Positions 5,470-25,395 of a stretch of DNA of 25,516 nt are shown one piece after another. The notes beneath the pieces were generated by a model that was not told the origin of the DNA, made no database searches, and saw nothing but the letters and a program-made list of their open reading frames with translations. Positions within the stretch are counted from its first letter, which is position 1; each line of letters opens with the position of its first letter. Source of the stretch: Candidatus Bathyarchaeia archaeon (lineage in GTDB: Archaea > Thermoproteota > Bathyarchaeia > Bathyarchaeales > Bathycorpusculaceae); the NCBI GenBank assembly GCA_049512075.1, contig JBEKXL010000031.1:1-25516 (forward strand), written 5' to 3'. The position numbers and the translations under genes were made by a program.

Positions 5470-5634
5470 CGATGAGATTCGTTACCATAAACTTTCAGAC
5501 ATAAATATCTTCTCAGTGCGCGCCAAAATTTGTTTCCGAATAACTCGGCAATATGCACATGCGACGTGCGCTAGCCTGTCCTCTCCTTGCAAGTTTCTGC
5601 TCAAACATTTGGCGCGCACATCTTGATTTTGTCT

Positions 5635-6948
5635 CTATTTCTGGAAAATGTGAATTTCTCGTCCGATCTTGTGTCTTTCAGCTACATCAACGAGGGATGT
5701 CATTTTGGTCAAATTCTCGTGTGCAGTGTCGTCTCTGGGAAGAACCTCTTTCGGAAATGGATAGACTCTCTTGAAACCGACTGTCACTGCTTTTTCTTCA
5801 ATGTGCATTGTGACCGGTTTTCCTGAACGCGTTTTTATGTAAGGTGTTACGAGCACCAGCCGTCCCTCTTTTTTCAGTCTCTCGTGTGCCTTTTCCAAGA
5901 AATCACAGTATAGAGGTCTGAGCCTGTCGATGATCTTTGTCGCGTAGGGTGTAGTTGCAATGTGCCGTAGCGCTGGACCCAGATCGGGTTCTGTTGCTAT
6001 GCAGTCTACCTCTTGTTGAATTCTTTCCGCCAGTCTGCGCGAGTCTCCTTGCAGAACCGTGTATTCTGCATCTTCCAACGCGTACTCTTTTTTGAGCCAC
6101 TCGAGATTCTTCCGCGAAGCTTCAACACACCACGGGTTCACGTCCACTCCGATCACTCTTGCCTTAGCTAGAAGTGCTTCCTGAAGGATTGTGCCAACCC
6201 CGCAGAACGGATCGAGCAGAGATTTTCCAGCCGCGCAGAAAGCCAGGTTTATCATGATTCTTGCCAGTCGCGGCGGTATAGCAAATATCTTACGTTGAAT
6301 TGGTCTGCCTATGTCGCGTTTCTGAAATTCGAACGGATCATGCACGCCTACAGTGGTGGATACCACCGTCTGTTCTTTGCCTATGCAAAACAGTACTTCC
6401 GCTTTCCTTTCAACCAAGCCTTTTCTCAACACTTCAACGTGGCTCAGTTGAGGTTGTCGTCTGCTCCTGGGAAAGCCCATGAACCCTGACTTCCTACCGT
6501 GAGCCGCCAGCTCATGCTTCAGGGAGCTTCCGACAAACCGTTGCATCCTTCTTGAAACTGGATGAAAAGACCGCTCCGCGTAGTACACGCTTACACCAAA
6601 AACAGATTTTCCAGAAGCGGCTTCAACCATTTCATCAACTATACCGCTTGCGCAAAGGCTCATCCTAATTTGCGCCTGAGCCTGCTTGCTCTCTTTAAGA
6701 AACGCTTCTTCCACGGTCCAAGTAGCAACGTTCGTGACAACCTTGCCTATCTTTATGATTCCACCCAGATCAGCAACAACTGAGGCACCCAAACCCCTGT
6801 TGACGTTAGCGGTGAAGAATGCTGGTGTCAACTCATACAACTCAAACCCGCAGTTTCTCGCTTCCAAATACGCGACAAGCTCCGCTAGGGACAGCTTCCA
6901 ATTCTTCCCTGGAACAAACACGTAAGTGTTCTGACTATCGAGCACCAT
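5635..6948 (-). CDS. Trm11/TrmG10-like SAM-dependent RNA methyltransferase
   Basis: IPPRLARIMINL, LLDPFCGVGTIL, GVD, IATEPDLG motifs. Start placed at ATG 6948 because the upstream in-frame part looks like a separate remnant. Confidence 0.75.
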   Translation of the reverse strand: MVLDSQNTYVFVPGKNWKLSLAELVAYLEARNCGFELYELTPAFFTANVNRGLGASVVADLGGIIKIGKVVTNVATWTVEEAFLKESKQAQAQIRMSLCASGIVDEMVEAASGKSVFGVSVYYAERSFHPVSRRMQRFVGSSLKHELAAHGRKSGFMGFPRSRRQPQLSHVEVLRKGLVERKAEVLFCIGKEQTVVSTTVGVHDPFEFQKRDIGRPIQRKIFAIPPRLARIMINLAFCAAGKSLLDPFCGVGTILQEALLAKARVIGVDVNPWCVEASRKNLEWLKKEYALEDAEYTVLQGDSRRLAERIQQEVDCIATEPDLGPALRHIATTPYATKIIDRLRPLYCDFLEKAHERLKKEGRLVLVTPYIKTRSGKPVTMHIEEKAVTVGFKRVYPFPKEVLPRDDTAHENLTKMTSLVDVAERHKIGREIHIFQK

Positions 6949-7014
6949 GCTTAGACATGTGAGTACTGTTGCCTGACGCATAAGAGAGTAATGGTTTGAG
7001 ACAAAAGAAGCATT

Positions 7015-7148
7015 CAAAATGGCGCTTTCTAGCGTGCGCTTGAGTAACTCGCCTATCAGCTCAGATGGCCGCACCTTTTCACGCCTGCGAAGCTCCCGGT
7101 AGGCGTCCCAGACTTGAGAATCATTAACATGTCTGTTTGTTTCTTCAT
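7015..7148 (-). pseudogene. Frameshifted ribbon-helix-helix-like small protein remnant
   Basis: ATG 7148 reads MKKQTDML. Restoring one base near 7123 continues as DSQVWDAYRELRRREKVRPSELIGELLKRTLESAIL, a strand-helix-helix pattern. Confidence 0.45.
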
Positions 7149-7295
7149 GTTTTCATTACAATGCAACATTACATCTGATGTTACAATTGTGGAGTAGGGA
7201 GGTCTGCTTTGAAGGGCAGACCAGCCTGTTTTCTTCATGATTTGTTACGAAGCAGCATTAAAAATGACGTTACAACTGAAAAGAGGGGGTCGACT

Positions 7296-7379
7296 TTGAA
7301 GGGTATGTATGGACGGCTTGAGATTTTAGTCGGGAAGATGTTTAGAGTTGCAGTTCTTGGCGAGTGTGCCGTTACATAG
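7296..7379 (+). CDS. Putative 27-aa small protein (MKGMYGRLEILVGKMFRVAVLGECAVT)
   Basis: SD-like GAGGGGGT at 7283-7290, TTG start 7296 (in-frame ATG 7305), TAG 7377-7379, then a hairpin and pyrimidine tract. Confidence 0.4.
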   Translation: MKGMYGRLEILVGKMFRVAVLGECAVT

Positions 7380-7430
7380 GAGACTTATCGGGTCTCTCTT
7401 CCCTTTTTTGCGTTTCTTTTTCCCTCTCTC
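7380..7430 (+). terminator. Hairpin plus T-rich tract, putative terminator
   Basis: GAGAC-TTATCGG-GTCTC followed by TCTTCCCTTTTTTGCGTTTCTTTTTCCC. Confidence 0.4.
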
Positions 7431-7845
7431 ATATGGTCTCTTTTTTCTAAACTCAAAATGCATCTTCCCGCAGGACTTGATCGCTTCGGTTCCGACTGAT
7501 AAGTCGCGTTTGCCGAAGTTGCTTAATTCATCGATGCTGTCAAAAGAGGTAAGCGCGCAAGGTTTGTATTCGGACATAAGAACGACCAACAGATTTTTTC
7601 TTGCCTGTTTTTCCCTCGCGCGCACAGATTTTCGATTATCACTACTTACAAGCACAACAATAGACTTAAAGGTTTCCGCAACATTGCGAAGCAAATACTC
7701 GATATTCTTTCTTCGGGAAGTTGCAAGGCCAAAACGTACACTTCTTGTCTTAACTTATCCAAAGAACTCTAGCGTGCGCTGGCAGTAACCCCTGTTCTTA
7801 GGCTCAAAAGCCAGTTTCAGAATTCCTGCTTTAGAATCTTAGAGA

Positions 7846-8199
7846 CTATGAATATTCTCTGAACGTGTAGTTGCATTTTGTGCAACGCAGAAACTGGGTT
7901 GAAGATTCATCTGCACCTCTGGTTTGCACCTGCCACACGTATGCCACGTTGTTCCCGCATTTTGGACATTCCATCCTCACGGTGGGCAGGGTTCTCAGTT
8001 TCTGTTCCTCTTTTCCTATCACTGCCACAAGCTGTGTTGGCTTGTGCTGGAAAACCTTGGCGACTTTGGGTTCGATTTTCTTTGTTGCGGCCGGTTTCTT
8101 GTAGCCGCACTTTGCACAGGTCATCACTAACGTTTTTTCTGTGCCGCTTTTTCCTTTCTTAGCCTCAAGCCGAGAACCGCATTTTGGACAAAATTCCAT
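7846..8199 (-). CDS. tfs: Transcription factor S (TFS, RpoM-like)
   Basis: Two zinc ribbons (FCPKCG..CAKCG; CPKCG..RCTKC) and catalytic QTRGADE. Start at MEFCPKC (8199). Confidence 0.93.
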   Translation of the reverse strand: MEFCPKCGSRLEAKKGKSGTEKTLVMTCAKCGYKKPAATKKIEPKVAKVFQHKPTQLVAVIGKEEQKLRTLPTVRMECPKCGNNVAYVWQVQTRGADESSTQFLRCTKCNYTFREYS

Positions 8200-8279
8200 G
8201 AACCTGTTCTCCGTCTTTCGTTTCTTTAGCCTTAGCAAAGTCTCTTTTAAACTTTTTTATGTTCAGCTAAGTATTCAGG

Positions 8280-8864
8280 CTAAGCCTGACTGGCACCTGA
8301 AGCGACAAGATGCGCGACCCGGAGGGCTTCTGGAATGTTGCTCCGCGTGGAGGTCAACTGAACAATCCTCCGCGCGTCACCTTCGTGGATGCCGCAGAGT
8401 TCCATGTACACTCTTTCGCCTCTGCTTCTTGTCTGCACCTCGAAAATCTGTCCAGCGTCCTGAACAGCTACCCAGCGTTCCGCGATCCTCGGCAGGTTCC
8501 TCAACGCCGCGTGAATCTCTCTGAAATCAGGTTTGTCACGCGTAACAACTATGACCGGCAGTTTTGTGAGGACGTTGAGTTCTTTGATGTTGACAATGTT
8601 GAAGCCGCCGAACGTGACGCCGTCGAGCATTATGATTCTGACCTGGTGGTAGTGCGGGGACTCGACAATCATGGAGGATATATTGTCAGTGGCGTCGAAA
8701 CCGTCAACCTTGACCTTGGTGCTCAGCACTCCGTCGAGCCAGTAGCCGCCGCGGAAGACGACGCCGACAACGGGGGCGTAGCCTTGGTGAGGAGTGAACG
8801 GTCCATCATCGACTCCTAAAACGCGGATTTCACGTTTAATTGTGCGGAACTTTTTTACGGACAA
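8280..8864 (-). CDS. DUF99/UPF0215 protein (endonuclease V-like, putative endonuclease dU)
   Basis: VLGVDDGPF, DGFDAT, LDGVTFGGFNIV, IPEALRVAHLVA. Confidence 0.88.
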   Translation of the reverse strand: MSVKKFRTIKREIRVLGVDDGPFTPHQGYAPVVGVVFRGGYWLDGVLSTKVKVDGFDATDNISSMIVESPHYHQVRIIMLDGVTFGGFNIVNIKELNVLTKLPVIVVTRDKPDFREIHAALRNLPRIAERWVAVQDAGQIFEVQTRSRGERVYMELCGIHEGDARRIVQLTSTRSNIPEALRVAHLVASGASQA

Positions 8865-8968
8865 ACCTTTTCCCCGTTAGCTCCAACACTAAAGTAAGAG
8901 GCAGCAATTATAAACTTGATCAACGGTAACGGCCAAGATGGGGTTGAGCTTTGGGCAGAGGTAGCAGA

Positions 8969-9344
8969 GTGTTCTCGTTTCGGACGGTTCGATGAAGCCT
9001 TGCCGAAGTCTTGGCGGATCGTGATCTGGCTTCGTTGGGGGACGCGTACGTGAACTTCGCACTCCCTCGCGTTGTCGAACAGGAGACGGAAGCCGTTAGG
9101 CGCTCGAGTTAAGGGAAGCGTGCTTGCCGAGGCGTTACGGAAGGCCGGGCTCAGCGACCGCTTGGGCTCGAGCATGTCGAGGCACGCGCTTGCGGATGCA
9201 GCGGAAGCGATGATCGTGTACGCCTGGCTGAACGGTTGCCTCACATTGAATGAAAGCGTCGCGATAATGAGGAAAGGTGAGGACGCGGTTGAAGGTATGA
9301 GCACGCTATTGGCAACGGCCAAAAAAAGGGTTACTTTTCCTTGA
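8969..9344 (+). pseudogene. Disrupted archaeal ribonuclease III-like protein
   Basis: SLAEVLADRDLASLGDAYVNFA (8996-9061; RNase III-like LGD signature) shifts frame at 9062 into SLALSNRRRKP...LADAAEAMIVYAWL. In-frame TGA at 8993-8995. Confidence 0.7.
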
Positions 9345-9615
9345 GCGCTCTGACGAGTTCCTTGCTGAATTCCTTGTTCATCCCACGCGCGTTTTCCAAC
9401 GCGTCCCGCAGCACCTGTTCGGGCTTGGCTGCGCCTTTCGTGCGGACGTAGATTACGGCGTTGGGAGTAAGCGGATGCGGTATGTCGTAGCCAGCCAGAT
9501 CCACGCTTTTTTCTTCCAAGATTTTTTTCTGCAGCAGGTTACAGACGGTGTGACCTGCTCCTTCAATTTCTATTCTCAGTTCGTTTGACGTTTTTTTGAG
9601 CACGTTAACCTTCAT
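9331..9615 (-). CDS. rpoL: RNA polymerase subunit L (Rpo11)
   Basis: EGAGHTVCNLL, AGYDIPHPL signature. Adjacent to csl4. Confidence 0.95.
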   Translation of the reverse strand: MKVNVLKKTSNELRIEIEGAGHTVCNLLQKKILEEKSVDLAGYDIPHPLTPNAVIYVRTKGAAKPEQVLRDALENARGMNKEFSKELVRALKEK

Positions 9616-10216
9616 CCAGACCCTCCTTCCTGTGGGGTATCAGGCCTTTTCCGTAATCGGAGGCTGTTTTGCGTTTTTCGATACTTCCACACTTGGGGCA
9701 GTGCATGCCCTGCCGCTTGGGCTCAAGAAGCGTGCCGCAGTTGGAGCAGAAAGCGTAGACGACGCCGAGGTTCTTGTCTTTAGTGGACAAGTGGTACGTA
9801 CGGTTTTTGTCGCTGACGACTTTGGCCCTTATGATGTCGCCAGCCTTGCACACGTCGTACATCGAGTCCACGTACCTCAACGCCACGTCGGAAACGTGTA
9901 GAATGCCCGTGAAAACTCCGTTGATTTCTTCTCCGCCGATTTCAAAGATACGGGCTCCCGCAGTGTCTGACTGCGCGTTCGAGACCTGTGCTAGGACGGT
10001 GTTGCCCAGGGCAGGAACCTTTGACGGGCCGATGAGCTGATGCACTGAGACGCGCCTATGAACCAGGTCGATGAGAATGCGGCCGATGACTTTGGAGTAT
10101 ATTACGCCGTCTTTAACGTATGTTCCAGCGTCGGGAATGAACTCTTCAATCACGCCTAGACGGTCGCCGGGCACGGCCAGCTGACCGGTTTTCTGTTCCC
10201 CAAGTTTTGAACTCAT
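9605..10216 (-). CDS. csl4: Exosome RNA-binding protein Csl4
   Basis: VPGDRLG..EEF N-domain, S1 domain (GDIIRAKV), LGVVYAFCSNCG..CPKCGSIEKRK zinc ribbon. ATG 10216 preferred over GTG 10243. Confidence 0.95.
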   Translation of the reverse strand: MSSKLGEQKTGQLAVPGDRLGVIEEFIPDAGTYVKDGVIYSKVIGRILIDLVHRRVSVHQLIGPSKVPALGNTVLAQVSNAQSDTAGARIFEIGGEEINGVFTGILHVSDVALRYVDSMYDVCKAGDIIRAKVVSDKNRTYHLSTKDKNLGVVYAFCSNCGTLLEPKRQGMHCPKCGSIEKRKTASDYGKGLIPHRKEGLDEG

Positions 10217-12558: not shown

Positions 12559-12673
12559 GCGGCATCTGATGTAGGTGTTCTCACTCGTGTTTTTATTGTT
12601 TATGGAACCCTGTTCGTCAAAATTAGGTGACCGAGTTTAGTGTGGTCATCTTGGCGCGCGTGAGTTTTAAGGT

Positions 12674-12850
12674 TTAATCATGGAGGCGGGGCTGGCGGTA
12701 GAGGCGGCAGTGTTGTCGTGGCTTTCTTCTACGCAACACCAAGACGAACAGCGCTCCAACGATGAATAGAACAACTATTATTATAATTATCTGCGAATCC
12801 GAAGCCAAAGCCCCACCGCCACCCCACATGTTGGTTTCAGTAAATGTCAT
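12674..12850 (-). pseudogene. Orphan C-terminal membrane-anchor remnant of a surface protein, or a small TM protein
   Basis: MTFTETNMWGGGGALASDSQIIIIIVVLFIVGALFVLVLRRRK. A one-base frame change near 12722 gives the tail ATTTLPPLPPAPPP-stop. Confidence 0.55.
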
Positions 12851-12871
12851 CGTTAAGGATCAGCGCGCGCT

Positions 12872-13558
12872 TCATCCCCTCCTTATGACATAGAGATCAA
12901 CTGTGAACTCATGCCTCCTTTTTGTGTGAAAACTGAACATGTACGGGATAGTCATAACCATAGGGTAAACGGCTTTGATGCATCTGCCGCGTTTCTCAAC
13001 GAACCTTCTAAAAAAGGGCGAAGCGGAAACTTGAAGGACGTCATCTCTGTGAGGTTTCAGTTTTCTCGTCAACGCGGTGTTATCTTGTGTGCTTTTGTGA
13101 AGTGAGTAGACAGCTTTGCCTGAGTCAAGGGCTTTTTCAAGAAACTTGCGGTCTGCGCCTCTTTTTTGCACGCCGAACGGCGGGTTTTGCAGCGCCGTGT
13201 CGAACTCTCCGCAGACTGCGTCTATGTCCGCGGTGACCCATTGCACTTTATCTTTCAATCCCGTGTTTGCCGAGTTTTCACAAGCGACTTTCACCGCTGT
13301 TGGGTCTATGTCCACGCCTACAACTTCTCTTGCACCTAGGAAGGCGGCTCCCAAGGCGAGTCTTCCGGTGCCGCAGCCTAGGTCCAGAACGGTTTTGTCC
13401 ACGATGTCGCCATACGTGTAGGCTGCCATGTAGAGCATTTGAGCTGCTACGCTGGCGGAAATCGTGTATTGTTCGAGGTTTGGGTTGGGTGTCGGGTGCG
13501 GCTTGATGTTCGAAAGCAGAATTTCCAAATCTAGCTTTCGAGCAAGCCTTTTCTGCAT
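12872..13558 (-). CDS. METTL5-like N6-adenine RNA methyltransferase
   Basis: LEQY, VLDLGCGTG, GVDID, NPPFG, YSLH. Conserved position after dph2. Confidence 0.9.
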   Translation of the reverse strand: MQKRLARKLDLEILLSNIKPHPTPNPNLEQYTISASVAAQMLYMAAYTYGDIVDKTVLDLGCGTGRLALGAAFLGAREVVGVDIDPTAVKVACENSANTGLKDKVQWVTADIDAVCGEFDTALQNPPFGVQKRGADRKFLEKALDSGKAVYSLHKSTQDNTALTRKLKPHRDDVLQVSASPFFRRFVEKRGRCIKAVYPMVMTIPYMFSFHTKRRHEFTVDLYVIRRG

Positions 13559-14532: not shown

Positions 14533-14602
14533 TCCGGTACCTTCAGCAAAGATTGCAGAAAATGAAATTTGAGTGTGGAAAGAAAGGTGTTCGTGTGAGG
14601 GT

Positions 14603-17059
14603 CTATTCTGCCCATTCCCAGTCTTGTCTTGGTTTCAGAATTGGATGCCCGAGGGCTCTTGCTTCCTGTTCGGCGAGCCTTTCTAGAATTATCTTCTGTT
14701 CCACGCTCGCAACCAGTTTCTTCGTGGCTATCACTGCGTCATTGTTCACTGAGATGCTGTCAATTCCCATCCTGACCAGGAACTCTGCGAAGTCCGGCAG
14801 GTTTGACGGACCTTCTCCGCATATGGACACTGTTGCGCCGTTTTCGTGAGCGACTCTGATGAGGTGAGCGATTATTCTTTTGACGGCTGGGTCTCTTTCG
14901 TCGAAGTATCCCATCAGTCCCAGGCGTTCTGAGTCTCTGTCAATCATGAGTATTCCCTGAGTCATGTCGTTTGAGCCTATTGAGAACCCGTCTGCAAGTT
15001 TTGAGAATTCATCTGCGAGTATGGCGATTGAGGGTGTTTCAGCCATGAACCACACTTTGAAGTCTTTCGATCTCTCCAGGCCTTCTTGACGCATGATTTC
15101 CAGCACCGCCTTTGCTTCCCACAGGGTGCGAACGACTGGAAGCATGACCCACACGTTTTTCAGGCCCCATTCTTTTCGACATTTGACGATGGCTTGGCAT
15201 TCAAGTCTGAAGGCTTTCTCGTACCATTGGCTTATGTAGCGGCTGCAGCCTCTCCATCCAAGCATCGGGTTGGCTTCTACGATTTCGTATTTTTCTCCGC
15301 CTTTCAGGTCTCGGTACTCGTTTGTTTTGAAGTCGCTGAAGCGCACGACAACCGGACGTGGCATTATCCCTCTTGCAACGGTCGCCATTCCTTCTGCGAG
15401 TTTGTCGACGAACTCTTGGCCTTGTCCTGTTTCGACGAAACGCATCGGGTGTTCGCCGATGTAGCTAGCCAAGATGAATTCGATGCGCATTAGTCCTATG
15501 CCCTCGAAGGGCAGGTCCTTATACGCGTCTACTTTTTCCGGCACTCCCAAGTTCATGTAAATCCTGGTTGCTGTAACGGGCACCGACTGGAACACGCCCG
15601 TACCGACCGCTGTTGAGCCTGCAGCTGCTCCTGCGGCTGATGAAAGTTGCTGTGTTAGTGCTTCCATTATTCCTTCGTAGACGACGCCGCTTCTCGAGTC
15701 TACCGTGTACTGTTTTCCGGTTTTCATGAGTTTTGTGGCGTTTTCCGTTCCGACAACGCATGGTATCCCTAGTTCGCGGCTTACGATTGCCGCATGGCAT
15801 GTTACTCCGCCCTTGTCAGTTACTATTGCGCCAGCTAGCTTCATGAAGGGCACGTAGTCCGGGTTGGTCATTTCCGTGACGAGAATGTCGCCTTTCTGCA
15901 TGACGTTAGCCGCTTCTTCAGTGCTTGCCACGACTTTCGCCGTGCCTGCGCCGAAGCCTCGTTTGCCGGCGGCGATTCCTTTGACGACGACTTTCAATGC
16001 TTCAGCTTTCTTGGTTTCTTCCACTTCGCCTCTTGCCGGCGCTTGGTCCACCTTTGCGGACCAGACTGTTTCGGGCCTTGACTGTACTATGAAGACGTTG
16101 CTTGGGTAGGGTATGTCCTCGTCTATTGCCCATTCGATGTCTTGAGGTTTTCCGTAGTGGCTTTCGATGCGTTTTGCGAGTTCTGCAAGTTTTTGGATTT
16201 CCTCGTCGTTTATGCACGGCTTGTTCTGCTTTTCCCTGGGCACTTCCGCGTGTATTGTGTCTCCGGTTTTCGGGTCGCGGATGTACTGGACGGTTTTTTT
16301 GGCTAGTCGTTTTTCAGTTACCTTTAGGGATTCTTTGTCGACAACGAAGTCGTCCGGCGTGACTGATCCTGACACGACGGCTTCGCCTAGGCCCCAGTTG
16401 CCTTCGATGACTATTTTGGTCGGGTCGCCCGTGACGGGGTTCAAGGTGAACATGACGCCCGCGGCTTTGGAGTTGACCATTTTTTGGACTCCGACGCTTA
16501 TGAAAACTTTTTCGTGGGCGAAGCCTTTCTCGTTTCGGTAGAAGATGGCGCGTGGTGTGAAGAGGCTGGACCAGCACTTCACCGTGTTGGCGATTACAGC
16601 GTCAGCGCCTTTGACGTTTAGGAAGGTTTCCTGTTGTCCAGCGAAGGATGCGTCTGCCAGGTCTTCGGCTGTCGCGCTTGATCTGACGGCAACGAACACG
16701 TCTTTCATGTTGAGTTTCTTGCACAGTTCCTCGTAGGCTGATTTTATGGCTTTTTCGATGTCTTTGGGCATGCGTGTTGACTCTATCAGTTTGCGGATTT
16801 TCTTGGAGGCCAGTTCACCCTGCTTGGGGTCGTCGGGCGTGGTCATCGTTTCGTTTATGATGTCGTAGATTTTGGCTGCTATGCCCGTTTCTTCGATGAA
16901 TTTCTTGTAGGAGTAGGCTGTTATTGCGAAGCCCGGTGGAACCGGCAGACCGGCGTATGTCATTTCGCCCAAGTTCGCGTTCTTGCCTCCGACGGAGGGA
17001 ATGTCTGTTCTTCTTAAGCCCCCAAACCAGATTACCAAGTCTTTGCGCATTTCACTCAA
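14603..17059 (-). CDS. ppsA: Phosphoenolpyruvate synthase (pyruvate, water dikinase)
   Basis: VGGKNANLGEM, VAVRSSATAED, TCHAAIVSRELG phospho-His motif, FSIGSNDMTQ. Start at 17059 (TTG) or 17050 (ATG). Confidence 0.96.
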   Translation of the reverse strand: MSEMRKDLVIWFGGLRRTDIPSVGGKNANLGEMTYAGLPVPPGFAITAYSYKKFIEETGIAAKIYDIINETMTTPDDPKQGELASKKIRKLIESTRMPKDIEKAIKSAYEELCKKLNMKDVFVAVRSSATAEDLADASFAGQQETFLNVKGADAVIANTVKCWSSLFTPRAIFYRNEKGFAHEKVFISVGVQKMVNSKAAGVMFTLNPVTGDPTKIVIEGNWGLGEAVVSGSVTPDDFVVDKESLKVTEKRLAKKTVQYIRDPKTGDTIHAEVPREKQNKPCINDEEIQKLAELAKRIESHYGKPQDIEWAIDEDIPYPSNVFIVQSRPETVWSAKVDQAPARGEVEETKKAEALKVVVKGIAAGKRGFGAGTAKVVASTEEAANVMQKGDILVTEMTNPDYVPFMKLAGAIVTDKGGVTCHAAIVSRELGIPCVVGTENATKLMKTGKQYTVDSRSGVVYEGIMEALTQQLSSAAGAAAGSTAVGTGVFQSVPVTATRIYMNLGVPEKVDAYKDLPFEGIGLMRIEFILASYIGEHPMRFVETGQGQEFVDKLAEGMATVARGIMPRPVVVRFSDFKTNEYRDLKGGEKYEIVEANPMLGWRGCSRYISQWYEKAFRLECQAIVKCRKEWGLKNVWVMLPVVRTLWEAKAVLEIMRQEGLERSKDFKVWFMAETPSIAILADEFSKLADGFSIGSNDMTQGILMIDRDSERLGLMGYFDERDPAVKRIIAHLIRVAHENGATVSICGEGPSNLPDFAEFLVRMGIDSISVNNDAVIATKKLVASVEQKIILERLAEQEARALGHPILKPRQDWEWAE

Positions 17060-17582: not shown

Positions 17583-17833
17583 TTTACATTCCCCTTGTGA
17601 AAAACATGACCCACATATTTAAGCATTAACGACTGAATGGAAGACACTCTTGAAAATGGCGCGCGCTTGCACGGGCTGGTTGAGCGAAACCCAAATGAAA
17701 CTTTCAGGGAATTCCTGAAATACACTTGTCAGCAGCAGTGAAGGAGGTTCTCGAACAGCAAGAACAGAGCTAATGGAGTGAAAGCCCAGCAAGGGGTTCA
17801 GGGAAATTGAGCTACGTAACGCCTTCGCTCGCG

Positions 17834-18784
17834 CTAGGGCGCGCGTTGGAACCATTCCACGAGCTTGTTTATCCCTTCCTCCAGAGAGAATTTTGATTTG
17901 TATCCGAGCATTCTCTTCGCTTTTTCGATAGAAGCGTAACTGTGTCTTATGTCTCCTTGTCTAGAACTTTTGTAGATGGGCTTCAGTTGTTGTTTGCCCA
18001 GTTTTTCTTGGAGCCTTTGAACGAGTTCATTTATTGTGTGGGGTATGCCTGTTCCAATGTTTAATGCTTCGCCAACTGCTTTTCCGGAGTTTAGAGCGAG
18101 CATGTTGGCTTCGACAACGTCTTCAACATAGACGAAGTCTCGCGTTTGGCCTCCATCCCCAAAAATTACTGGGCGTTGGCCTCGTGACAGCTTGTTCAGG
18201 AATATTGTGGTTGCACCGCTGTAGACGCTGAAGGTTTGTCTGGGACCGTAGACGTTGAAATAGCGCAGGCAAACTGTCTCAAGCCCATATGCACGATAGA
18301 AGACTTTGGCATAGTTTTCCGCCGCAAGCTCAGCAACTGCGTAGGGCGAAACAGGATTGGGCGCCAAAGTCTCGCCCACAGGCAGGGTCTCTGTGCTGCC
18401 ATAAACTGAGGCTGAAGAAGCCTGAATGTAGCGCCTTACCCCTGAGTCAAGCGACGCCTTGAGGAGGTTTAACGTTCCGCCCACATTCACTTCGTTTGCC
18501 AAGAGCGGGTTTTCAAGAGAACGGGACACGCTGACCACTGCGGCTTCGTTGAACACGACATCTACGTCTTTGACTAGACGTTTAACAACGTTGAAGTTAC
18601 GAACGTCGCCCCGGACAAAGCGGAATCTTCGGTTACGGTTGCAGTTTTCAATGTTTTCCAGAAGCCCCGTGTATAGGTTGTCTAGCACGGTGACTTCTAT
18701 GTCTTGATCTGTGAGCCTGTCTGCGATGTAGCTGCCTATGAAGCCCGCTCCACCAGCAACAAGAACGCGGGAAACCTTGGTCAC
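17834..18784 (-). CDS. Extended SDR NAD-dependent epimerase/dehydratase (GalE/WbpP-like) with altered catalytic motif
   Basis: GGAGFIG, ASSASVYG, LRYFNVYGPRQ, GDGGQTRDFVYV. YxxxK reads YAVAE. Confidence 0.88.
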   Translation of the reverse strand: MTKVSRVLVAGGAGFIGSYIADRLTDQDIEVTVLDNLYTGLLENIENCNRNRRFRFVRGDVRNFNVVKRLVKDVDVVFNEAAVVSVSRSLENPLLANEVNVGGTLNLLKASLDSGVRRYIQASSASVYGSTETLPVGETLAPNPVSPYAVAELAAENYAKVFYRAYGLETVCLRYFNVYGPRQTFSVYSGATTIFLNKLSRGQRPVIFGDGGQTRDFVYVEDVVEANMLALNSGKAVGEALNIGTGIPHTINELVQRLQEKLGKQQLKPIYKSSRQGDIRHSYASIEKAKRMLGYKSKFSLEEGINKLVEWFQRAP

Positions 18785-18861
18785 GTTTTCTGTACACCTC
18801 TTGCCTCTCCTCTTTCCAGAAGAAAGATATAATGGTTAGCGTGCGGTCGAACGTTGCGCGC

Positions 18862-19153
18862 TGGCTTGTCCCTAAAATGGTTAAAAATGGTTTTTATTCT
18901 TCTTTTGTCTTTTCGCGTTTGATATGGGCTTGTTTTCTGGGCAAATCTTGGCCGCGCGCTAAGATGGCAAATCAACGGGTTCCAACAAATCCTGAAGGAA
19001 GTAGAGTTTTTCCATAACACGTTGAGGCTGCACCTAGCCCGTTTGGAACTTCAAGGCACGCAAGAGGACCAAAAACAGATGCACACCTCAAAACTGCCCC
19101 CAAACCCGAAAACAAGACTTATAGCCATTTTAGACCAATTTCGGGACAAGGCA
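18862..19153. mobile_element. 292-bp MITE-like non-autonomous element
   Basis: Imperfect terminal inverted repeats TGGCTTGTCCCTAAAATGGTTAAAAATGG vs TGCCTTGTCCCGAAATTGGTCTAAAATGG (24/29, extending to 35/45). GCGCGC on both flanks (18856-18861, 19154-19159). Second copy at 25396. Confidence 0.78.
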
Positions 19154-19357
19154 GCGCGCTGAAGTTTTTTTGAAATCGAACATCGAAAATACGCCCGCAA
19201 CAGCCAGGGCCAGTATCAAGGGTTTCCAAAGAGGCCGCCTACCCAAGCTTGAACAATAGAGGCAAGATTATTCGCGCGCGCGACTCTTATCCGTCTTTTG
19301 TAACGACATTCTATCCAGCACACGTTGAAGGCTCGCTAAAACGGTGAACAAGCACAA

Positions 19358-20416
19358 CTAGGGATAAAGGGTTTTCAACGTAAAGTCCACCCAGTAGACG
19401 CCGTTGCAGTTGGGTATTTCACCAAACAGTCTGTTAGCTATGGTTTTGTAGGGGTCCGCCAGTTTGGACCACCATGCTCTGTCAGAATCGTAGCCTATTT
19501 GGAAGCCGATGTTTGAAGACTGGAAACGGGTTGCCCACTGATTGAATTCATCAACCAAAGCATCTATGTTCGGGAAGCCTTGGCTGTCATCAACGAACAC
19601 TAAGCCCACAGGGTGAATTGTCGGCATTTTTTCGATGAGCCAATGCTTCAAGAATAGCTGGTAGCTCGAGTTGTACGATTTGACCTCGTTAAGCCAACTT
19701 AGTGCTTCCTCGCTGGTGACGGCTCTGCCGTCTGGATACTGTCCCGACTGTAACCATTCAACGTCCACGCCGAAGCCTATAACGCAGGAATGGTGTTGGT
19801 AGCGTTGCAGAACAAGATTGATGAGCGTACTCACGTTCGCATCCGCAGGCTCAACCTGCAGCCAAACCTTCAAACCAGCCGCATCGAAATCGTTAAAATA
19901 CTTCTCATTCTCGTCAGTGTGGGAAAACATTATGTTTGGATAAGCCACCGAAGAATTAAAAGTGAGGTGACATTCCTGACCCACTATCTCGCCAAGAATC
20001 CAAATCCCACTAGGAACAGAGTTTCCAATCTTTGAAGCCATGTCCTCTGCCACATTAACCCAGTAGCTGGGCTCCACTTCCGTCTGAAACTCATACGGAG
20101 AACTCCTCCACCCCGCAAGAACCTGACTTACGCCGATGCCAGTCTGTCCGTAATGCACAGCCAAAATCACCAAGTCACCCAAATCAACTTTGCCATCACC
20201 GTTAATGTCCGCGTTGCTGTTCCAACGTGGATCAACCGGCCCCGAACCGAAAGCGCTTGCAAGAATTCTCAGGTCCAAAAGATTGACCGCCCCGTCACCA
20301 TTTATGTCTCCAAGAATCGCCGCAGCTAAGCTGCCCGTCCGAAACTGGACGGCGAAAATCAATAGGCTCGAAAACAACAACGACAGCAACAGGCATGAAA
20401 GAACTCTTTTCGACAT
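19358..20416 (-). CDS. Secreted dockerin-containing protein with putative TIM-barrel glycoside-hydrolase-like domain
   Basis: Signal peptide, duplicated Ca-binding loops GDINGDGAVNLLD / ADINGDGKVDLGD, then ~260 aa with VWLQVEP, GFGVDVEW, LKHW, FVDDSQ, FQIGY, WVDF motifs. Confidence 0.75.
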   Translation of the reverse strand: MSKRVLSCLLLSLLFSSLLIFAVQFRTGSLAAAILGDINGDGAVNLLDLRILASAFGSGPVDPRWNSNADINGDGKVDLGDLVILAVHYGQTGIGVSQVLAGWRSSPYEFQTEVEPSYWVNVAEDMASKIGNSVPSGIWILGEIVGQECHLTFNSSVAYPNIMFSHTDENEKYFNDFDAAGLKVWLQVEPADANVSTLINLVLQRYQHHSCVIGFGVDVEWLQSGQYPDGRAVTSEEALSWLNEVKSYNSSYQLFLKHWLIEKMPTIHPVGLVFVDDSQGFPNIDALVDEFNQWATRFQSSNIGFQIGYDSDRAWWSKLADPYKTIANRLFGEIPNCNGVYWVDFTLKTLYP

Positions 20417-20616
20417 TTCTCACTCAGTATTCCGAGTATGCTGAGCAGGGAAATAACAGTTGCGTAGACTGGTTTCTAGCCTCGCGCCACTGTTCTTTCG
20501 GTTTCTGTTACCGCGCGCGCACATTCTTTTTCTGCCTGACCACTTTAACTCTACTCTCCCCCCTCAGCAAGGCCGTCTCAGAAACAGCTTTTTAACGGCA
20601 AAAAGCCCCTGTTGAC

Positions 20617-20760
20617 TGTGGGCTTGGCGAACCGTGTTGTTTCAAGGCGAGATCGGACCATTCTGTCTAGGAAATTCAACCAGTCCTCCTAGCTTTTGGA
20701 AATCTCGCTGGAAAGGACATTCATTCCCTCATGAAAAAGGCCGGTTCGCTAGGCTCCACA
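20617..20760 (+). ncRNA. Candidate structured non-coding RNA of unknown family
   Basis: Closing stem 20617-20634/20742-20760 with G-U pairs, nested stems, TATA-like TTTTTAA ~25 nt upstream. Confidence 0.5.
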
Positions 20761-20843
20761 AATTCGCGTATGCAATGAGAGATGACGATCATATTAAGCA
20801 CATGAACATTCAGGCCTACCTTCAGAGTGAACACGTTGACTTT

Positions 20844-20990
20844 GTGAAGGAAGACATTTTCGTGAACATCACGCTCTGCCGTGTTCCAGATGATTTGTTA
20901 CGGGAGTTTGCCCACAAAGTGGTTGTCAACTATCCAGACGGCATGAGCGAAGCCGTACAGGATTTGATGAGGAGGGCGTTGAAGGAATGA
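20844..20990 (+). CDS. Small ribbon-helix-helix-like protein (48 aa)
   Basis: VNITLCRVPDDLLREF...GMSEAVQDLMRRAL fits the RHH strand-helix-helix pattern. GTG 20844 chosen; TATA-like TATTAAG at ~20792. Confidence 0.6.
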   Translation: MKEDIFVNITLCRVPDDLLREFAHKVVVNYPDGMSEAVQDLMRRALKE

Positions 20991-21169
20991 GCAGGTTTCC
21001 AAGATGCGAAGAAGGCAGCTGCGAGATTGTGCCGAGCGTCAACAACCGTGAACTGTCGCTTAAACGGGCTGAGGATGAAGTACGTTACGGTAGGCTTTGG
21101 GCCGAGGTTGAGCTGCCAAAACTCTTGGCTTACAAAGAACCGAACAGAGAAGACAACAAGCAGCCGTGA
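20987..21169 (+). CDS. Hypothetical protein, 60 aa
   Basis: ATGA overlap with the upstream stop; SD-like GAGGAGG and GAAGG upstream. Confidence 0.5.
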   Translation: MSRFPRCEEGSCEIVPSVNNRELSLKRAEDEVRYGRLWAEVELPKLLAYKEPNREDNKQP

Positions 21170-21262
21170 TTCCGCGTTAAGAGTTGTAGGATTCAGGTGT
21201 TGACAGCATAGCGCGCGACTCCCGAAAAAGTGAACTGGTTTAGAGCGGACGAAGGCTGCGTG

Positions 21263-22120
21263 TTAGGTGAACTCTTTTCTCTCGAAGAGGATTAGTCCCA
21301 GAACCCCTGTGACGATGAAATACAGTGCTATGATTACGAGTCCTTCCGGAACCGATGCGGCGAAAGTGGTGATAGTGATCGTACGAGGGCCAAAGTGCTC
21401 GACAGTCACAGTGGTGTGAGGCGGATAGGGCACGGTTAGTATGCTTCCTATTATTTGTCCCCCGTAGGTCAGGATGAACCAGGGCTCAACCTGAACGAGA
21501 TCTGCGACAAGCGACTGGATGAGTGTGAACACGAACAAAAAGAGGATAGCAGTCACGATAATGGACATTGAGCTGCTCTTGAACAGCGAACTGAAAAAGA
21601 AAGTGACCCCGAGGACAGCCACAAGATAGAACCATGCAAAGAGCACAGAATAGCCGAATTGGTACGGCACGTTTATGCCAAAGTAGTACATCCCGTTGCT
21701 GACCGTGATCGCCGTGAACACAACCAATATTACGGTAGCCGCGATGAAAGCTGCCAACCACTTACCCACATAAATGGACGACCTTCTAATCGGGTTCGGA
21801 ACTCCAAAGTAGCCCGTCTTGTTCTGAAATTCTCCTGAAATGGCATCGCCACCGAAGAAAATGCCGGAAAGCACGATGACGAAAGTGACGGAATTACCCC
21901 ACCAACCAGAATAGAACGACAGGTCAGAAGCTAGAAAGCCCACAGGACGATAGTACCCTACTATGAAAGTGAGAAGCGCACCTATCAGAAGAGTTATGAT
22001 TAGAAGTATGAAGAACCTGCGCGACCTGAAATAATCCAGAAACGTGTATTTCAACGTGATGCCAACCTGCGTCAGGCTGCCCGGCACCGTGTTCGCGGAT
22101 ACAGTTTCTTTCTCGTTCAT
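21263..22120 (-). CDS. ABC-2 type exporter permease
   Basis: Six TM segments; DAISGEFQNKTG and PIRRSSIYVGKWLA motifs. Confidence 0.9.
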   Translation of the reverse strand: MNEKETVSANTVPGSLTQVGITLKYTFLDYFRSRRFFILLIITLLIGALLTFIVGYYRPVGFLASDLSFYSGWWGNSVTFVIVLSGIFFGGDAISGEFQNKTGYFGVPNPIRRSSIYVGKWLAAFIAATVILVVFTAITVSNGMYYFGINVPYQFGYSVLFAWFYLVAVLGVTFFFSSLFKSSSMSIIVTAILFLFVFTLIQSLVADLVQVEPWFILTYGGQIIGSILTVPYPPHTTVTVEHFGPRTITITTFAASVPEGLVIIALYFIVTGVLGLILFERKEFT

Positions 22121-22126
22121 GCTTGA

Positions 22127-23086
22127 TCACAACGTGCTCGTGATTAGCTTGAGATACGCGTCTTCGAGCTCCGATGACGCGGGCCTGTAACTGATCACCC
22201 CAATGTTCATTCCCACCAAGTCAGACAGAACCCGTTCCTGCACATCCAAGCCTCCGCTGAACTTAATTCTCAGAGTTTTATCGTCTTTCATCTCTGCCGT
22301 GACCACGTCTGCAAGAGTTGCTATTTCTCTGGTCACTAGCCCCGTGTCGATGGGACGTTGCAGCCCGACCTCCACGATGTTTTCTCCGCCTGAAACCTTT
22401 GCCGACACGTTGGAAATCGTGTCATAAACGATCAGCTTGCCATGATCGATCATTGCGACTTCATCGCAGACTTCCGAAACCTCACTGAGAATATGGGAAC
22501 TCATGAAAATCAACCTCTCCTTGCGCTTCAAGGATTTCACGATGTCCCTGACTTCGCTCATTCCACGGGGGTCAAGGCCGTTGGTGGGCTCGTCCAGGAT
22601 GAGTATGGTTGGATCGCTCAATAGTGCAGAGGCAATGCATATTCTCTGTTTCATTCCCTTAGAAAGCTTGCCAACTCTCTTATCCATCCATTCTTCCATT
22701 CGCACTTCAGAGACCGCTTTCTCAATTCGCCCACTTCGCTCTGCCTTAGGCACTCCCCTAATCTCGGCGATCATCATAAGCGCTTCCCTAGGCGTTAGCG
22801 AAGGGTAAATCTCAGGAGTCTCAATCAAAGTACCCACAGACTCCAACGCTTTCTTCTTGTCAGTGTGCACGTTCACGCCGTTTATCAGAGCCTGCCCAGC
22901 GGACGGTCTAATTAGATCAGTAAACATTTTGAGAGTAGTCGTCTTCCCCGCACCGTTCGGACCCAAAAACCCCACACACTTCGACCCCACAAGCTTCAAG
23001 CCCAAATCCGAAACGGCAACAAACGAACCGTAACGTTTGGAAAGATTCACAGCCTCTAATGACAGATCTGTCAAGGTAACCAGCAC
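22127..23086 (-). CDS. ABC exporter ATP-binding protein
   Basis: Walker A GPNGAGKTT, signature LSKGMKQR, Walker B ILILDEP, H-loop SSH. Confidence 0.95.
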   Translation of the reverse strand: MLVTLTDLSLEAVNLSKRYGSFVAVSDLGLKLVGSKCVGFLGPNGAGKTTTLKMFTDLIRPSAGQALINGVNVHTDKKKALESVGTLIETPEIYPSLTPREALMMIAEIRGVPKAERSGRIEKAVSEVRMEEWMDKRVGKLSKGMKQRICIASALLSDPTILILDEPTNGLDPRGMSEVRDIVKSLKRKERLIFMSSHILSEVSEVCDEVAMIDHGKLIVYDTISNVSAKVSGGENIVEVGLQRPIDTGLVTREIATLADVVTAEMKDDKTLRIKFSGGLDVQERVLSDLVGMNIGVISYRPASSELEDAYLKLITSTL

Positions 23087-23311
23087 CCACCCATTAAGTA
23101 CTTGTCGATCGCAGTTATCTTCAGGCTGTTCACCATATCTTCAGGTCACCATGCAAACCGCAAAAGGTGATCGCCACACTCAGGGGGCGCGGTTATTAAG
23201 CTTTTTCCAGAATTGAACACAGTTCCAACAAAAGCACATGGCGCTTGCGGCGCCCAGCGAAATAGCACGCACGCCTGAGTCAGAACTTTTCCTGCGTCAC
23301 CGCACGCGAGA

Positions 23312-23352
23312 GTTCAAACTGTTTGTACAAGTCCGTTCAAACTATTTGTACA
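23312..23352. promoter_or_regulatory. Tandem near-palindromic operator-like repeats
   Basis: GTTCAAACTGTTTGTACA (23312-23329) and GTTCAAACTATTTGTACA (23335-23352), 17/18 identical. Confidence 0.55.
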
Positions 23353-23425
23353 GACACTCAGAAACGTACAAAAACGTAGAATTAACTCCTTCGGCGGCTT
23401 ATCATTTTCCTGGTGATGAGAGGGG

Positions 23426-23758
23426 ATGGCGAACATAAACGTTCAGCTAAGGAATAGCGGAAGAGATAGGATAGCCATAGTTGCGGAAATTCTGGAGATG
23501 GCACGCCAAGGAGTGCTTAAGACCAACATAATGTACAAGGGAGGACTGAATTCGCATATGCTGAACAAGTACCTCGGGCTCATGATGAACGCCAAACTGC
23601 TGGAGAAAGTCTTGATGAACAACAGAGTAGTGTACAAAGCAACCCACAGGGGCACGGAGTTCCTGTACCACTGCTATGAAATCGAAAGACTGCTAGAAAC
23701 CGAGAACGTTGCAAACAAACCCGACGGAAGAATCCAACTTCTTCCAAGCAGTCCATAG
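23426..23758 (+). CDS. Winged-helix transcriptional regulator (archaeal ArnR1-like/HTH_45 type)
   Basis: RDRIAIVAEILE..KTNIMYKGGLN..YL..L..YKATHRGTEFL pattern. SD-like GAGGGG. Confidence 0.85.
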   Translation: MANINVQLRNSGRDRIAIVAEILEMARQGVLKTNIMYKGGLNSHMLNKYLGLMMNAKLLEKVLMNNRVVYKATHRGTEFLYHCYEIERLLETENVANKPDGRIQLLPSSP

Positions 23759-23867
23759 CGCACGCTCATCTTTATAAGTAATGCGGGGATATACTAGGGA
23801 AAGATGTGCCGATAGGTCATTGCAAGACTGTTTTCTCGTGAAATGGTTTGCTTTTGCTTAGCGCGCG

Positions 23868-24071
23868 ATGAAGGAAGTCATATTGTTGCTGAATTTCAAG
23901 GATGTTAGGAAGTGCAGAAATTCCGTAGAACTGAATGAGTTCATCGAAAAGTACGCTGCCCAGGGAAACCCGTCAAGCGAGAGTTTCGATAGCATATACT
24001 GGAACCTGTTCGAAGAATGGAAAAAAGCCTTAAAGGCGAAACCCGGACGCACACTTCAACGCTCGCGCTGA
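23868..24071 (+). CDS. Hypothetical protein, 67 aa, possibly a remnant
   Basis: ORF with protein-like composition. TATA-like CTTTATAAG at 23770, but stops lie between it and the ATG. Confidence 0.35.
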   Translation: MKEVILLLNFKDVRKCRNSVELNEFIEKYAAQGNPSSESFDSIYWNLFEEWKKALKAKPGRTLQRSR

Positions 24072-24132
24072 GCGCACGCTAGCACGTTTGCCAAATCCCT
24101 GCCAGCTCGTCTTCACGTCAAATCAGTTCTGT

Positions 24133-24444
24133 CTAGATTTTGCCCAGAATAGTGTTCCTCAGCTCCGCGTATTTCTTCTCAAGGTCTTCTTTCAGCGTGG
24201 CGGTTTCTGAGGTCAGTCTGGCCTTCACCTGCGTGTTCAAGTCTTTTGCTTTCATGATGTCCTGGTCTATTTTTTCCAAGTCATGCTTCGCAGAATACTT
24301 TAGTTCTTCAGCCTTCTTCAACGCCTCCACCTTGATCTTTTCAATGCTTGCCAGTTGACCTCTTATGTCCACTTCTCTCTTGCCGAGTTCTTCCCGCATC
24401 TTGGTCAGCTTTTTCTGGAATTCAAATTCAAAAGACTCGCTCAT
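24133..24444 (-). CDS. Small charged coiled-coil hypothetical protein
   Basis: 103 aa, E/K/L-rich with heptad character. Confidence 0.75.
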   Translation of the reverse strand: MSESFEFEFQKKLTKMREELGKREVDIRGQLASIEKIKVEALKKAEELKYSAKHDLEKIDQDIMKAKDLNTQVKARLTSETATLKEDLEKKYAELRNTILGKI

Positions 24445-24656
24445 TATCCAGCACCTTCTACTCTAGAGCGGTATTGGCGTAGCATAAGCCTTTCGCGGGC
24501 GCGAGCAAGAAAAGGGGAGCTTACTAGTTTCCCAAGTTTGCCTATCGAGTATTCTGGTCTCGCGCTGAGGAAGATTAATCCTGGAAGCGCGCGCTGATGA
24601 GAGGAGAAGCCCAGAAGCAGAAGCAAAACATTGAGCCCGTGTGCTAACAGTTTACC

Positions 24657-24896
24657 CTACTTGTCTATTTCAAGAAGCCGAAGTGAGCGAATTAGCGAGA
24701 TTTCTCGCTCCGTTACTTCTTCAGTCTTTCTAACTGTTTCCTCCGTGGCTGAAGACGCGAAAGCCACTTTCCTTCCAAAAGGGTTATGGGGAGCGCGCAC
24801 AAACACAACTGGGCACCCTTCATTTTCACAAGAATATTTGGATTTGCTATCTTTAACCAAGGGTTTGCCGCACTGTGGACAGTTCACCATCTTCAT
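24657..24896 (-). CDS. Small zinc-ribbon protein
   Basis: CPQCG-x11-CENEGC. Start at ATG 24896 or 24890. Confidence 0.65.
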   Translation of the reverse strand: MKMVNCPQCGKPLVKDSKSKYSCENEGCPVVFVRAPHNPFGRKVAFASSATEETVRKTEEVTEREISLIRSLRLLEIDK

Positions 24897-25074
24897 CACG
24901 CAACACGAATAACGTTCCCACGAACGATTATACAGGTTATTTCGAACTTGACAATATAGCAAGAACAGACAAATCAGCTGAACCAAAGCCTACTTAGCGC
25001 ACGCTATTCTTGCCTTCGTCGCTCTTGTTTTGTCAATTTTTGAAACCTTAACCGCGCGCGAGTAAGAGTGAATG

Positions 25075-25258
25075 TTTCGTGGAGAGAACCTCTAGAACTA
25101 GGTTCCACAAGAAATAAAAGCGGTTTTTCGGTAATCTTGTGTGGAGAGTACCCAAGGAGAAGGGAGAACTAGTTCGCGGGGAGAGTGTCATACTAGGAGA
25201 AAGGAGAAACCTGGAATTCCCTGCGGGAAACCCCAGAATTCTGTTGGCACTCTCCATT
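25075..25258 (+). ncRNA. Candidate structured RNA with seven GGAGA motifs
   Basis: Serial hairpins, 11-bp stem 25180-25190/25245-25255, GAAA tetraloop, TATA-like AAACCTTAA at ~25043-25051. Confidence 0.45.
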
Positions 25259-25395
25259 AAATAAGTTGGTTAACCTAGGCCTAAAAAATTTGTCCAGAAC
25301 TAATCAAAATCTGTAATGATTCTTCACTCAAAAAGCCCGTTCTAACAGGTGCAGCTGGGCCTTTCGTTGTTAGAAATGCAAACGTTAACGCGCGC

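Follow-up and report, generated by a model that had tools for sequence, protein, structure and literature searches.

The highly iterated palindrome HIP1 (GCGATCGC) of cyanobacteria is a close described counterpart of the element treated here, the alternating G/C runs built on GCGCGC that recur in the non-coding DNA of a Candidatus Bathyarchaeia archaeon (assembly GCA_049512075.1) and that were first noted on its contig JBEKXL010000031.1, a stretch of 25,516 nucleotides which was analysed as a whole and is called the window below. Both are short perfect palindromes, over-represented genome-wide and lineage-specific, and HIP1 has reportedly been tied to excision events in one study. In the portions of the published accounts that were available, HIP1 is described as abundant in genes too, as conserved, and as subject to a proposed spread by substitution linked to orphan methyltransferases (PMC4390886, PMC5861425, PMC13756078). 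The archaeal runs differ on each of these counts, as they are almost confined to non-coding DNA, decay neutrally and arise as junction insertions, while no C5-methyltransferase was found in the studied genome.

Three further systems invite comparison. Repetitive extragenic palindromic (REP) sequences and bacterial interspersed mosaic elements with their REP-associated tyrosine transposases are likewise extragenic, lineage-specific and present in hundreds of copies; REPs are, however, imperfect hairpins of 20-40 nt that share a conserved 5′ tetranucleotide and are accompanied by a cognate gene for a Y1 transposase, whereas the GC unit is 8-14 nt long, perfect and without arms. [quoted passage not shown] Unlike such footprints, the enrichment occurs without the insertion sequence (IS) whose tips are GCGCGC and this IS occurs without the enrichment, and no target duplication is seen at small indels. 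The last comparison is with the GC clusters of fungal mitochondria, for which a related report is said to use the term 'palindromic microsatellite repeats' (PMC7218506). As far as the available part of one study goes, these clusters are sporadic GC-rich palindromes in non-coding DNA with fast turnover and without a transposase of their own, measure approximately 30-45 nt, and reportedly are both expressed and constrained (PMC4478555). The GC runs are also GC-rich, palindromic, non-coding, sporadic, quick to turn over and devoid of a transposase of their own, but their units of 8-14 nt are situated on an archaeal chromosome and at deletion junctions.

A literature search (supplements aside) returned no description of the motif in archaea within the parts of the sources that it covered, in keeping with the initial annotation of the window, which had regarded the signal as undescribed. 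The over-representation of GCGCGC was confirmed to be real and genome-wide, and the interpretation offered in that annotation, of an iterated signal analogous to HIP1, was partly supported. The explanation that we prefer, albeit at somewhat less than an even chance, is that the runs are short palindromic filler left where DNA broke and was rejoined, which decays neutrally and also acts as microhomology.

Abundance and anatomy of the GC runs

The studied genome (G000; 2.73 Mb in 86 contigs, 99.76% complete, with the window as its entire contig C31) was divided into coding and non-coding DNA by means of a crude map in which genes are greedy open reading frames (ORFs) of at least 90 amino acids, and by which 81.6% is marked as coding. 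GCGCGC ranks first of all 4096 hexamers, whether zero-order, first-order or maximal-order Markov ratios are applied, so that the enrichment which the initial annotation had predicted to survive such correction did so. In the 502 kb of non-coding DNA it occurs 2.6 times per kb, which is 14 times the first-order and 20 times the zero-order expectation, as compared to 0.245 per kb, or 1.26 times expectation, in the 2.22 Mb of coding DNA. The excess increases with length, non-coding (GC)4 and (GC)5 reaching 97 and 275 times the first-order expectation, respectively, and AGCGCGCGCT is present in 115 copies as compared to 4 for its reversed control. The analogy with HIP1 stands for an iterated palindrome that is over-represented genome-wide, but it does not extend to abundance in coding DNA, the runs being largely limited to non-coding DNA, nor to the neutral manner in which they evolve.

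The unit can be written as (T)A(GC)3-5T(A). Approximately 70% of the 8- and 10-base runs are preceded by A and followed by T (A(GC)4T representing 98 of 144, and A(GC)5T 44 of 61, of the (GC)n runs with A or T on both sides), the second flanking base is weakly T or A, and the flanks are random further out. The most frequent non-coding 8-mers are AGCGCGCG, GCGCGCGC and GCGCGCTA.

In the window, all GCGCGC loci and all AGCGYRCGCT sites were found where the initial annotation had placed them. The 26 overlapping GCGCGC matches, which collapse to 20 loci, were not reached by any of 100 dinucleotide-preserving shuffles (mean 7.08, maximum 13), while AGCGYRCGCT occurs at 7 places where 0.11 are expected and where the shuffle maximum is 2. 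The runs and the features associated with them are as follows, with a strand where one is assigned.

5518-5523 and 5612-5617: solitary pair of GCGCGC in the spacer 5470-5634, both present in the sister species G002, that at 5612 also in G003 but shifted
7031-7040, with another copy at 7771-7780: AGCGTGCGCT, of the AGCGYRCGCT type, one transition from A(GC)4T
12654-12660: solitary GCGCGCG in the variable spacer 12559-12871, identical in G002
12863-12870: A(GC)4T abutting the stop of gene 12872-13558 (minus strand), at the edge of a conserved block
17659-17666: (GC)4 at the left edge of a variable segment, site of repeated events
17667-21134: segment of approximately 3.47 kb with an epimerase gene, a MITE, a dockerin-domain gene and others, missing from G002
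18856-19159, plus strand: 304-bp MITE with inverted-repeat ends GCGCGC-TGGCT-TGTCCCTAAA, tips at 18856-18861 and 19154-19159, internal CGCGCGC at 18953-18959
19273-19282: solitary (CG)5; strain X7 has 3,072 bp in place of 19274-19280
20512-20520: solitary CGCGCGCGC in the divergent spacer 20417-20633
21211-21217: TA-GCGCGCG in the spacer 20991-21262, with the degenerate form TAGCGCGTTT in G002
23757-23766, 24071-24080 and 24996-25005: decayed relatives of the run, AGCGCACGCT
23861-23867: TTA-GCGCGCG, where G002 has TTAACGCGCG
24587-24594: A(GC)4T at a break of homology with G002, split there (approximately 113 bp)
25053-25060: solitary (CG)4, where G002 has CCGCGTGCG
25390-25516, plus strand: left end of another MITE copy, truncated where the contig stops, with its GCGCGC tip at 25390-25395

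Intergenic spacers, which total 5,174 bp on the crude ORF map, hold 15 of the 20 loci. Three others (7553, 7618 and 24793) are situated inside the ORFs 7348-7788 and 24657-24986, neither of which has a Pfam match, so that the number of non-coding loci, initially put at about 17, is between 15 and 18; the remaining two lie within a cohesin-domain ORF (12245) and within the last codons of the epimerase gene (17839). Two of the three AGCGYRCGCT copies said to touch stop codons do so, as that at 12862-12871 abuts the stop of 12872-13558 (minus strand) and that at 23757 overlaps the stop of the ORF 23426-23758 (plus strand), whereas at 24071 no ORF of at least 80 amino acids ends. The motif also flanks the MITE, as had been stated, forming its very tips.

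Runs at junctions and breakpoints

Homology between the window and four other species begins or ends precisely at the runs at 12863 and 17659, and in all four of them (G001 to G004) it begins right after the former. The run at the latter place has 8 bases in G000 and 6 in G002 and reads CGCGCG in G003, strains X7 and X8 carry an extra GC at 17658, and the DNA to its right differs in each species or strain compared. The G002 junction that replaces 17.7-21.1 kb of the window carries CGCGTGCT, and since G003 retains the epimerase gene the loss of this segment in G002 is derived. Contigs of other public sequencing runs report the 3,072-bp replacement at 19274-19280 and a further one of 313 bp as variants, without the replacing sequence.

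The same association was established by comparing G000 with 1.18 Mb of G002, a syntenic sister species of 88-97% identity (139 aligned blocks, 699,613 columns). A run lies within 15 bp of 55 of the 200 non-coding block ends, as compared to 5.7% of positions drawn at random from non-coding DNA. Conserved blocks carry runs at their edges approximately five times more often than chance would give, and at 52 of the 90 colinear junctions at least one of the four ends bears a run. Among 38 simple indels between G000 and G002 there are eight in which a run is found only in the short allele, where it replaces 146-776 bp, and the corresponding long alleles have no run at their ends. The fillers at these places consist of (GC)3-4 with or without A, T or TA on either side, as in TA-GCGCGCGC-TA.

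For three of the eight indels the long allele is an open gene, so that their runs were created at derived deletions. The first is a 304-aa IlvE-like ORF of G002, which in G000 is replaced by TA-GCGCGCGC-TA; the second is an XPD-like gene, the long allele of which is shared by the outgroup G004; and the third codes for a surface protein of 1060 aa and shows a net difference of -306 bp. At the first of these loci (G000 C5:18732-18744 as compared to G002 c12:102740-103651) 723 bp of an intact IlvE-like aminotransferase gene have been exchanged for the filler, so that G000 carries a dead copy.

Decay of individual runs

Among 196 non-coding runs present in either genome, 105 were identical between G000 and G002, 66 carried substitutions, 20 a partial indel (often of 2 bp) and 5 were opposed by a gap spanning the whole run. 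Mismatches amount to 12.8% inside the runs and to 7.7% in neighbouring non-coding DNA, and 105 identical runs of 196 is close to the neutral expectation, without the conservation of sites that characterizes HIP1. The runs evolve no more slowly than neutral DNA, there is no selection on individual sites, and the AGCGYRCGCT variants are ordinary decay products of the runs.

Origin of the runs

We propose that the filler lies at three kinds of place, namely the junctions of deletions, the ends of segments that were inserted or duplicated, and those of one IS/MITE family, and that a lineage-specific activity may produce it during end joining. It could be imagined, and this is a guess, that an identical short, self-complementary tail is added to each of the two broken ends and that the tails anneal and are ligated. 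Such runs would survive only in dispensable DNA, since a gene rarely survives an insertion of 8-12 bases or a deletion, and once formed they would be eroded by ordinary point mutation without being kept by selection. Because every copy is complementary to every other, copies may in turn serve as microhomology for further deletions and insertions, which would explain why the runs mark the borders of variable DNA. Filler of this kind would account for the position of GCGCGC at the head of the word statistics, for spacers and gene remnants that end in GC runs and for the breaks in synteny found there, and it would imply that HIP-like abundance can arise without selection acting on the sites themselves.

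A number of observations weigh against this proposal. Only three of the eight filler deletions, together with the case in the window, are polarised, and the other five could be insertions that displaced a run; polarisation of births with G001, G003 and G004 failed as most spacers do not align at that distance, and polarisation by multi-copy repeats failed as MITE interiors hold almost no runs. In 5.9 kb of these interiors there is a single independent run, and in a further 4.5 kb there is none, as compared to 1.78 per kb. Unless the MITE copies are young, this is not what a process that affects all non-coding DNA alike would predict. Just 5 whole-run indels were found in approximately 89 kb of aligned non-coding DNA as compared to approximately 86 decayed runs, for which reason we assume that births mostly accompany larger structural change or fall in DNA that can no longer be aligned. 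The left and right TA of A(GC)4T are independent of each other (14 observed as compared to 12.7 expected for TA on both sides). No enzyme or element that makes the filler was identified, and we know of no repair pathway that adds a fixed palindrome. The proposal also leaves the identical TA|GCGCGC junction at the IS tips as an unexplained coincidence, and it is further weakened by the crude ORF calls that serve as gene calls and by the fact that kin genomes are not mutually independent.

A more specific form of the junction filler proposal, which we consider unlikely though worth stating, is that a sequence-specific end-healing activity in several lineages of Bathyarchaeia stamps each repaired break with a fixed palindrome. 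A protein or an RNA might provide the template for this activity, or an unrecognised mobile agent might carry it, and the identical self-complementary tails that it adds to both ends of a break would be TA(GC)2-3 in most lineages and additionally AGCTAG in family f35. Accumulated stamps would become the most over-represented words of the genome and the seeds of later rearrangements, and a palindrome of this kind may be where the IS family acquired its GCGCGC tips. If the palindromes do mark repaired breaks or rearrangements, past structural change could be read from them in an uncultured and globally abundant archaeal group, and they would point to an end-joining or mobile activity without a described counterpart.

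Alternative explanations

The alternative that survives best, yet which we regard as unlikely, is that the runs are transposon termini and excision footprints, in that GCGCGC-tipped IS and MITEs insert at TA and the joined tips leave TA(GC)nTA behind. The initial annotation had considered the motif as a transposon target or footprint, and GCGCGC is indeed the exact tip of an IS/MITE family. G000 contains 64 inverted-repeat ends of the form GCGCGC-N5-TGTYCCTAAA (92 under a slightly wider pattern), which form 28 paired elements of 131-1109 bp, namely 26 of 131-502 bp, one of 912 bp and one autonomous copy of 1109 bp, most of them flanked as ta|GCGCGC...GCGCGC|ta; the 304-bp MITE of the window belongs to this set. 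The autonomous copy (G000 C32:7469-8577) has a 291-aa ORF that matches DDE_Tnp_1 (6e-17) and DUF772 (5.6e-6), and this DDE transposase between inverted-repeat ends, together with short non-autonomous copies that share the ends, identifies the family as IS and MITEs. Its assignment as IS5/IS1182-like is loose, as all NCBIfam IS1182 and IS5 scores of the transposase fall below the curated cut-offs. Relatives of the transposase in named records are all from Bathyarchaeota/Bathyarchaeia assemblies and have GCGCGC runs at their end positions; the available part of a survey of archaeal IS (PMC13343696) contains nothing on Bathyarchaeia, footprints or GCGCGC-tipped IS.

By their shared flanks, 160 of the 889 non-coding runs (18%) are repeat ends, with TA as the outer flank in 56% of them, leaving 729 solitary runs. 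Joining of two 6-base tips would produce lengths of 6-10 and rarely 12, and at one site where G002 carries a complete MITE, G000 retains no more than the initial 13 bases of a MITE end. Within the 41 nearest genomes, moreover, those with at least 29 motif copies and those with at least 6 GCGCGC-type ends are one and the same set of six. Many copies have TA on both sides. No clean empty site was found in the other genome for 30 G000 elements or 4 G002 elements, none of the 30 G000 elements having both flanks contiguous in the 1.18 Mb of G002 compared. Against excision as the source of the runs, the small whole-unit indels show no duplication of TA and hence do not keep the target on both sides as a footprint would, solitary runs lie no nearer to MITEs than do positions chosen at random in non-coding DNA, and a deletion that removes flanking gene DNA should remove the transposon tips too.

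The distribution across the class separates the motif from the IS in both directions. At least 20 copies of AGCGCGCGCT are present in just 17 of 301 class genomes, from five families (f1, f26, f27, f35 and f36), and the signal is consequently not general to Bathyarchaeia. Homologues of the transposase are found in 58 of the 301 genomes, many of which are motif-poor. G203, with 32 ends, and G142, with 22, are not enriched in the motif, having 11 and 16 copies as compared to 4 and 14 of the reversed control, respectively. Conversely, no transposase homologue occurs in any member of the motif-rich family f35 (G089, G098, G102, G106 and G109), and in G089, a genome in a single contig of 1.98 Mb, no match to PF01609 or PF13358 was obtained. 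The profiling of gene presence against motif abundance covered PF00145, PF03852, PF01555, PF13358, PF01609 and the transposase.

In G089, for which the runs were analysed over C1:1-400000, they resemble those of G000, also in their range of lengths, which speaks for the filler proposal; they reach 1.53 per kb in non-coding as compared to 0.11 per kb in coding DNA, with 29, 20, 23, 20 and 20 runs of 6, 7, 8, 9 and 10 bases, respectively, 4 of 11 and 3 of 12-14. The flank is TA in 86 cases out of 238. No flank among these 238 recurs, and not one of the 174 pairs of runs resembles inverted-repeat ends. A second palindrome of this genome, (AGCT)3, has 9 sites in 76 kb of non-coding DNA and none in 317 kb of coding DNA. 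It sometimes directly adjoins a GC run. The IS/MITE family is neither necessary nor sufficient for the enrichment, and footprints, which are expected only where an element is or was active, do not fit family f35 with G089, nor G203 and G142. The idea that all runs are scars of IS/MITE excision was rejected as a general cause on the basis of the class-wide counts and G089. IS630 was likewise rejected as the agent that targets TA, since G000 has a single DDE_3 copy and G089, G098 and G160 have no such copy; the G000 copy is an IS630-type transposase at C58:944-1369, on a 1.9-kb contig, and among the 41 relatives only G000 and G014 have one.

Two individual MITE sites were also recorded. At G000 C26:23433 a MITE directly follows a sequence that resembles the 3′ end of a tRNA gene (...GGTTCAAATCCCCACCGGTCCACCA), where G002 is without the MITE. 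At G000 C12:39945 and G002 c4:7245 the same right junction, GCGCGC|TACTT..., borders different MITE interiors, which suggests that the element has been replaced or inverted in place.

It is improbable that the runs are GC microsatellites which grew by slippage from AGCGCT seeds and are capped as longer, Z-DNA-prone runs are unstable. Steps of one GC are common, with 20 partial indels among the 196 runs and the extra GC at 17658 in X7 and X8, which constitutes the whole-unit length change typical of microsatellites. In addition, plain AGCGCT is under-represented in non-coding DNA (0.65 times the first-order and 0.50 times the maximal-order expectation) while A(GC)3-5T is enriched. The length distribution is nevertheless not open-ended, as the non-coding alternating G/C runs number 320, 118, 220, 145 and 86 at lengths of 6, 7, 8, 9 and 10, respectively, and then fall sharply to 3 at 11 and 2 at 12, in place of a geometric tail. 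A few runs of 16-18 bases were encountered in G021, of a related genus (C2:8835-8852, C17:582-599 and C18:13586-13601), so that the limit of 10 is not absolute across lineages, and these would suit slippage. Slippage does not, however, predict whole units at deletion junctions without a prior seed, A...T flanks that in some cases belong to the inserted unit, or the patchy distribution over lineages, and AT, AC and AG repeats of the same lengths are enriched just 3- to 23-fold in non-coding DNA.

Equally improbable is a selected functional site, be it a binding site of a nucleoid or termination protein, as proposed in the initial annotation, or a Z-DNA element that absorbs supercoils. Restriction of the runs to non-coding DNA and their near absence from MITE interiors would be in agreement with such a site, and a perfect palindrome of 10-12 bp is shaped like the site of a dimeric protein. 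Runs are also depleted two- to four-fold within 50 nt upstream of start codons and are somewhat commoner just 3′ of stop codons. The consensus TTAGCGCGCGCTAA contains stop triplets on both strands, which may partially explain why ORFs often end at a run. Conservation above that of neighbouring DNA was not observed, runs per spacer fit a Poisson distribution, neighbouring runs have no preferred spacing and no fixed position relative to genes, and most of the class is without the motif. Their density is similar in divergent (1.49 per kb), tandem (1.80) and convergent (2.19) spacers, on which ground a terminator or promoter element was rejected. Pairs of runs as the stems of structured RNAs were rejected owing to the absence of a spacing peak between neighbours and of any Rfam match in the window.

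We attach still less probability to a HIP1-like origin, by which a methyltransferase combined with biased mismatch or very-short-patch repair would have spread the palindrome by point substitution. The palindrome does contain GCGC, its patchy distribution would fit a mobile methyltransferase gene, and 55 of the 75 differences between the species at runs are C>T or G>A; the share of transitions inside runs (73%) is, however, close to that of the non-coding background (67%). No match to the C5-methyltransferase family PF00145 was found in G000 and a single sub-threshold one (in G002) among its motif-rich kin, while Vsr was without a match in either. N4/N6 methyltransferases (PF01555) are present in G000, but as they are also present in 38 of 41 relatives they do not discriminate. 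The methylation- or repair-driven motif that the initial annotation had listed is further weakened by the births of runs, which are insertions of whole units and not substitutions, and by coding DNA, which is not enriched, unlike what the available parts of the HIP1 literature describe (PMC5861425, PMC4390886).

An assembly or sequencing artefact can be dismissed almost entirely. The 200 bp next to contig ends, a zone that represents 1.26% of the genome, do hold 43 of the 1445 runs, and several contigs end in MITE ends, but 97% of the runs are internal to contigs and thus not restricted to assembly junctions. The same sites recur in the assemblies of other species and, with length variants, in contigs from other public sequencing runs. 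The single-contig genome G089 has the motif as well, and an assembler is not misled by runs as short as 8-10 bases.

Other repeats and observations

A unit of approximately 350 bp occurs in about 10 copies in G000 (C13:8731-9100, C26:22421-22800, C8:6450-6700 and approximately 7 more) and consists of a 3′ gene fragment with a dockerin-like motif (DVDGNGEVSLPDL...), a second type of MITE and a tail. Its copies are truncated at the same base and have (GC)4-type runs on both sides, unrelated flanks and no inverted-repeat ends, an arrangement that speaks for the filler proposal.

The window itself contains, at 7121-7340, a member of a second MITE-like repeat family with the core ATTACATCTGACATTACAA, which is represented by 34 loci (4.5 kb) in G000 and by copies in the sister species, and which has neither GC tips nor internal GC runs. 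The depth of the contig in other metagenomes jumps 10 to 100 times at 15056-15308, part of a phosphoenolpyruvate synthase gene, and at 18741-19407, around the MITE, which probably reflects conserved or repeated sequence of other organisms.

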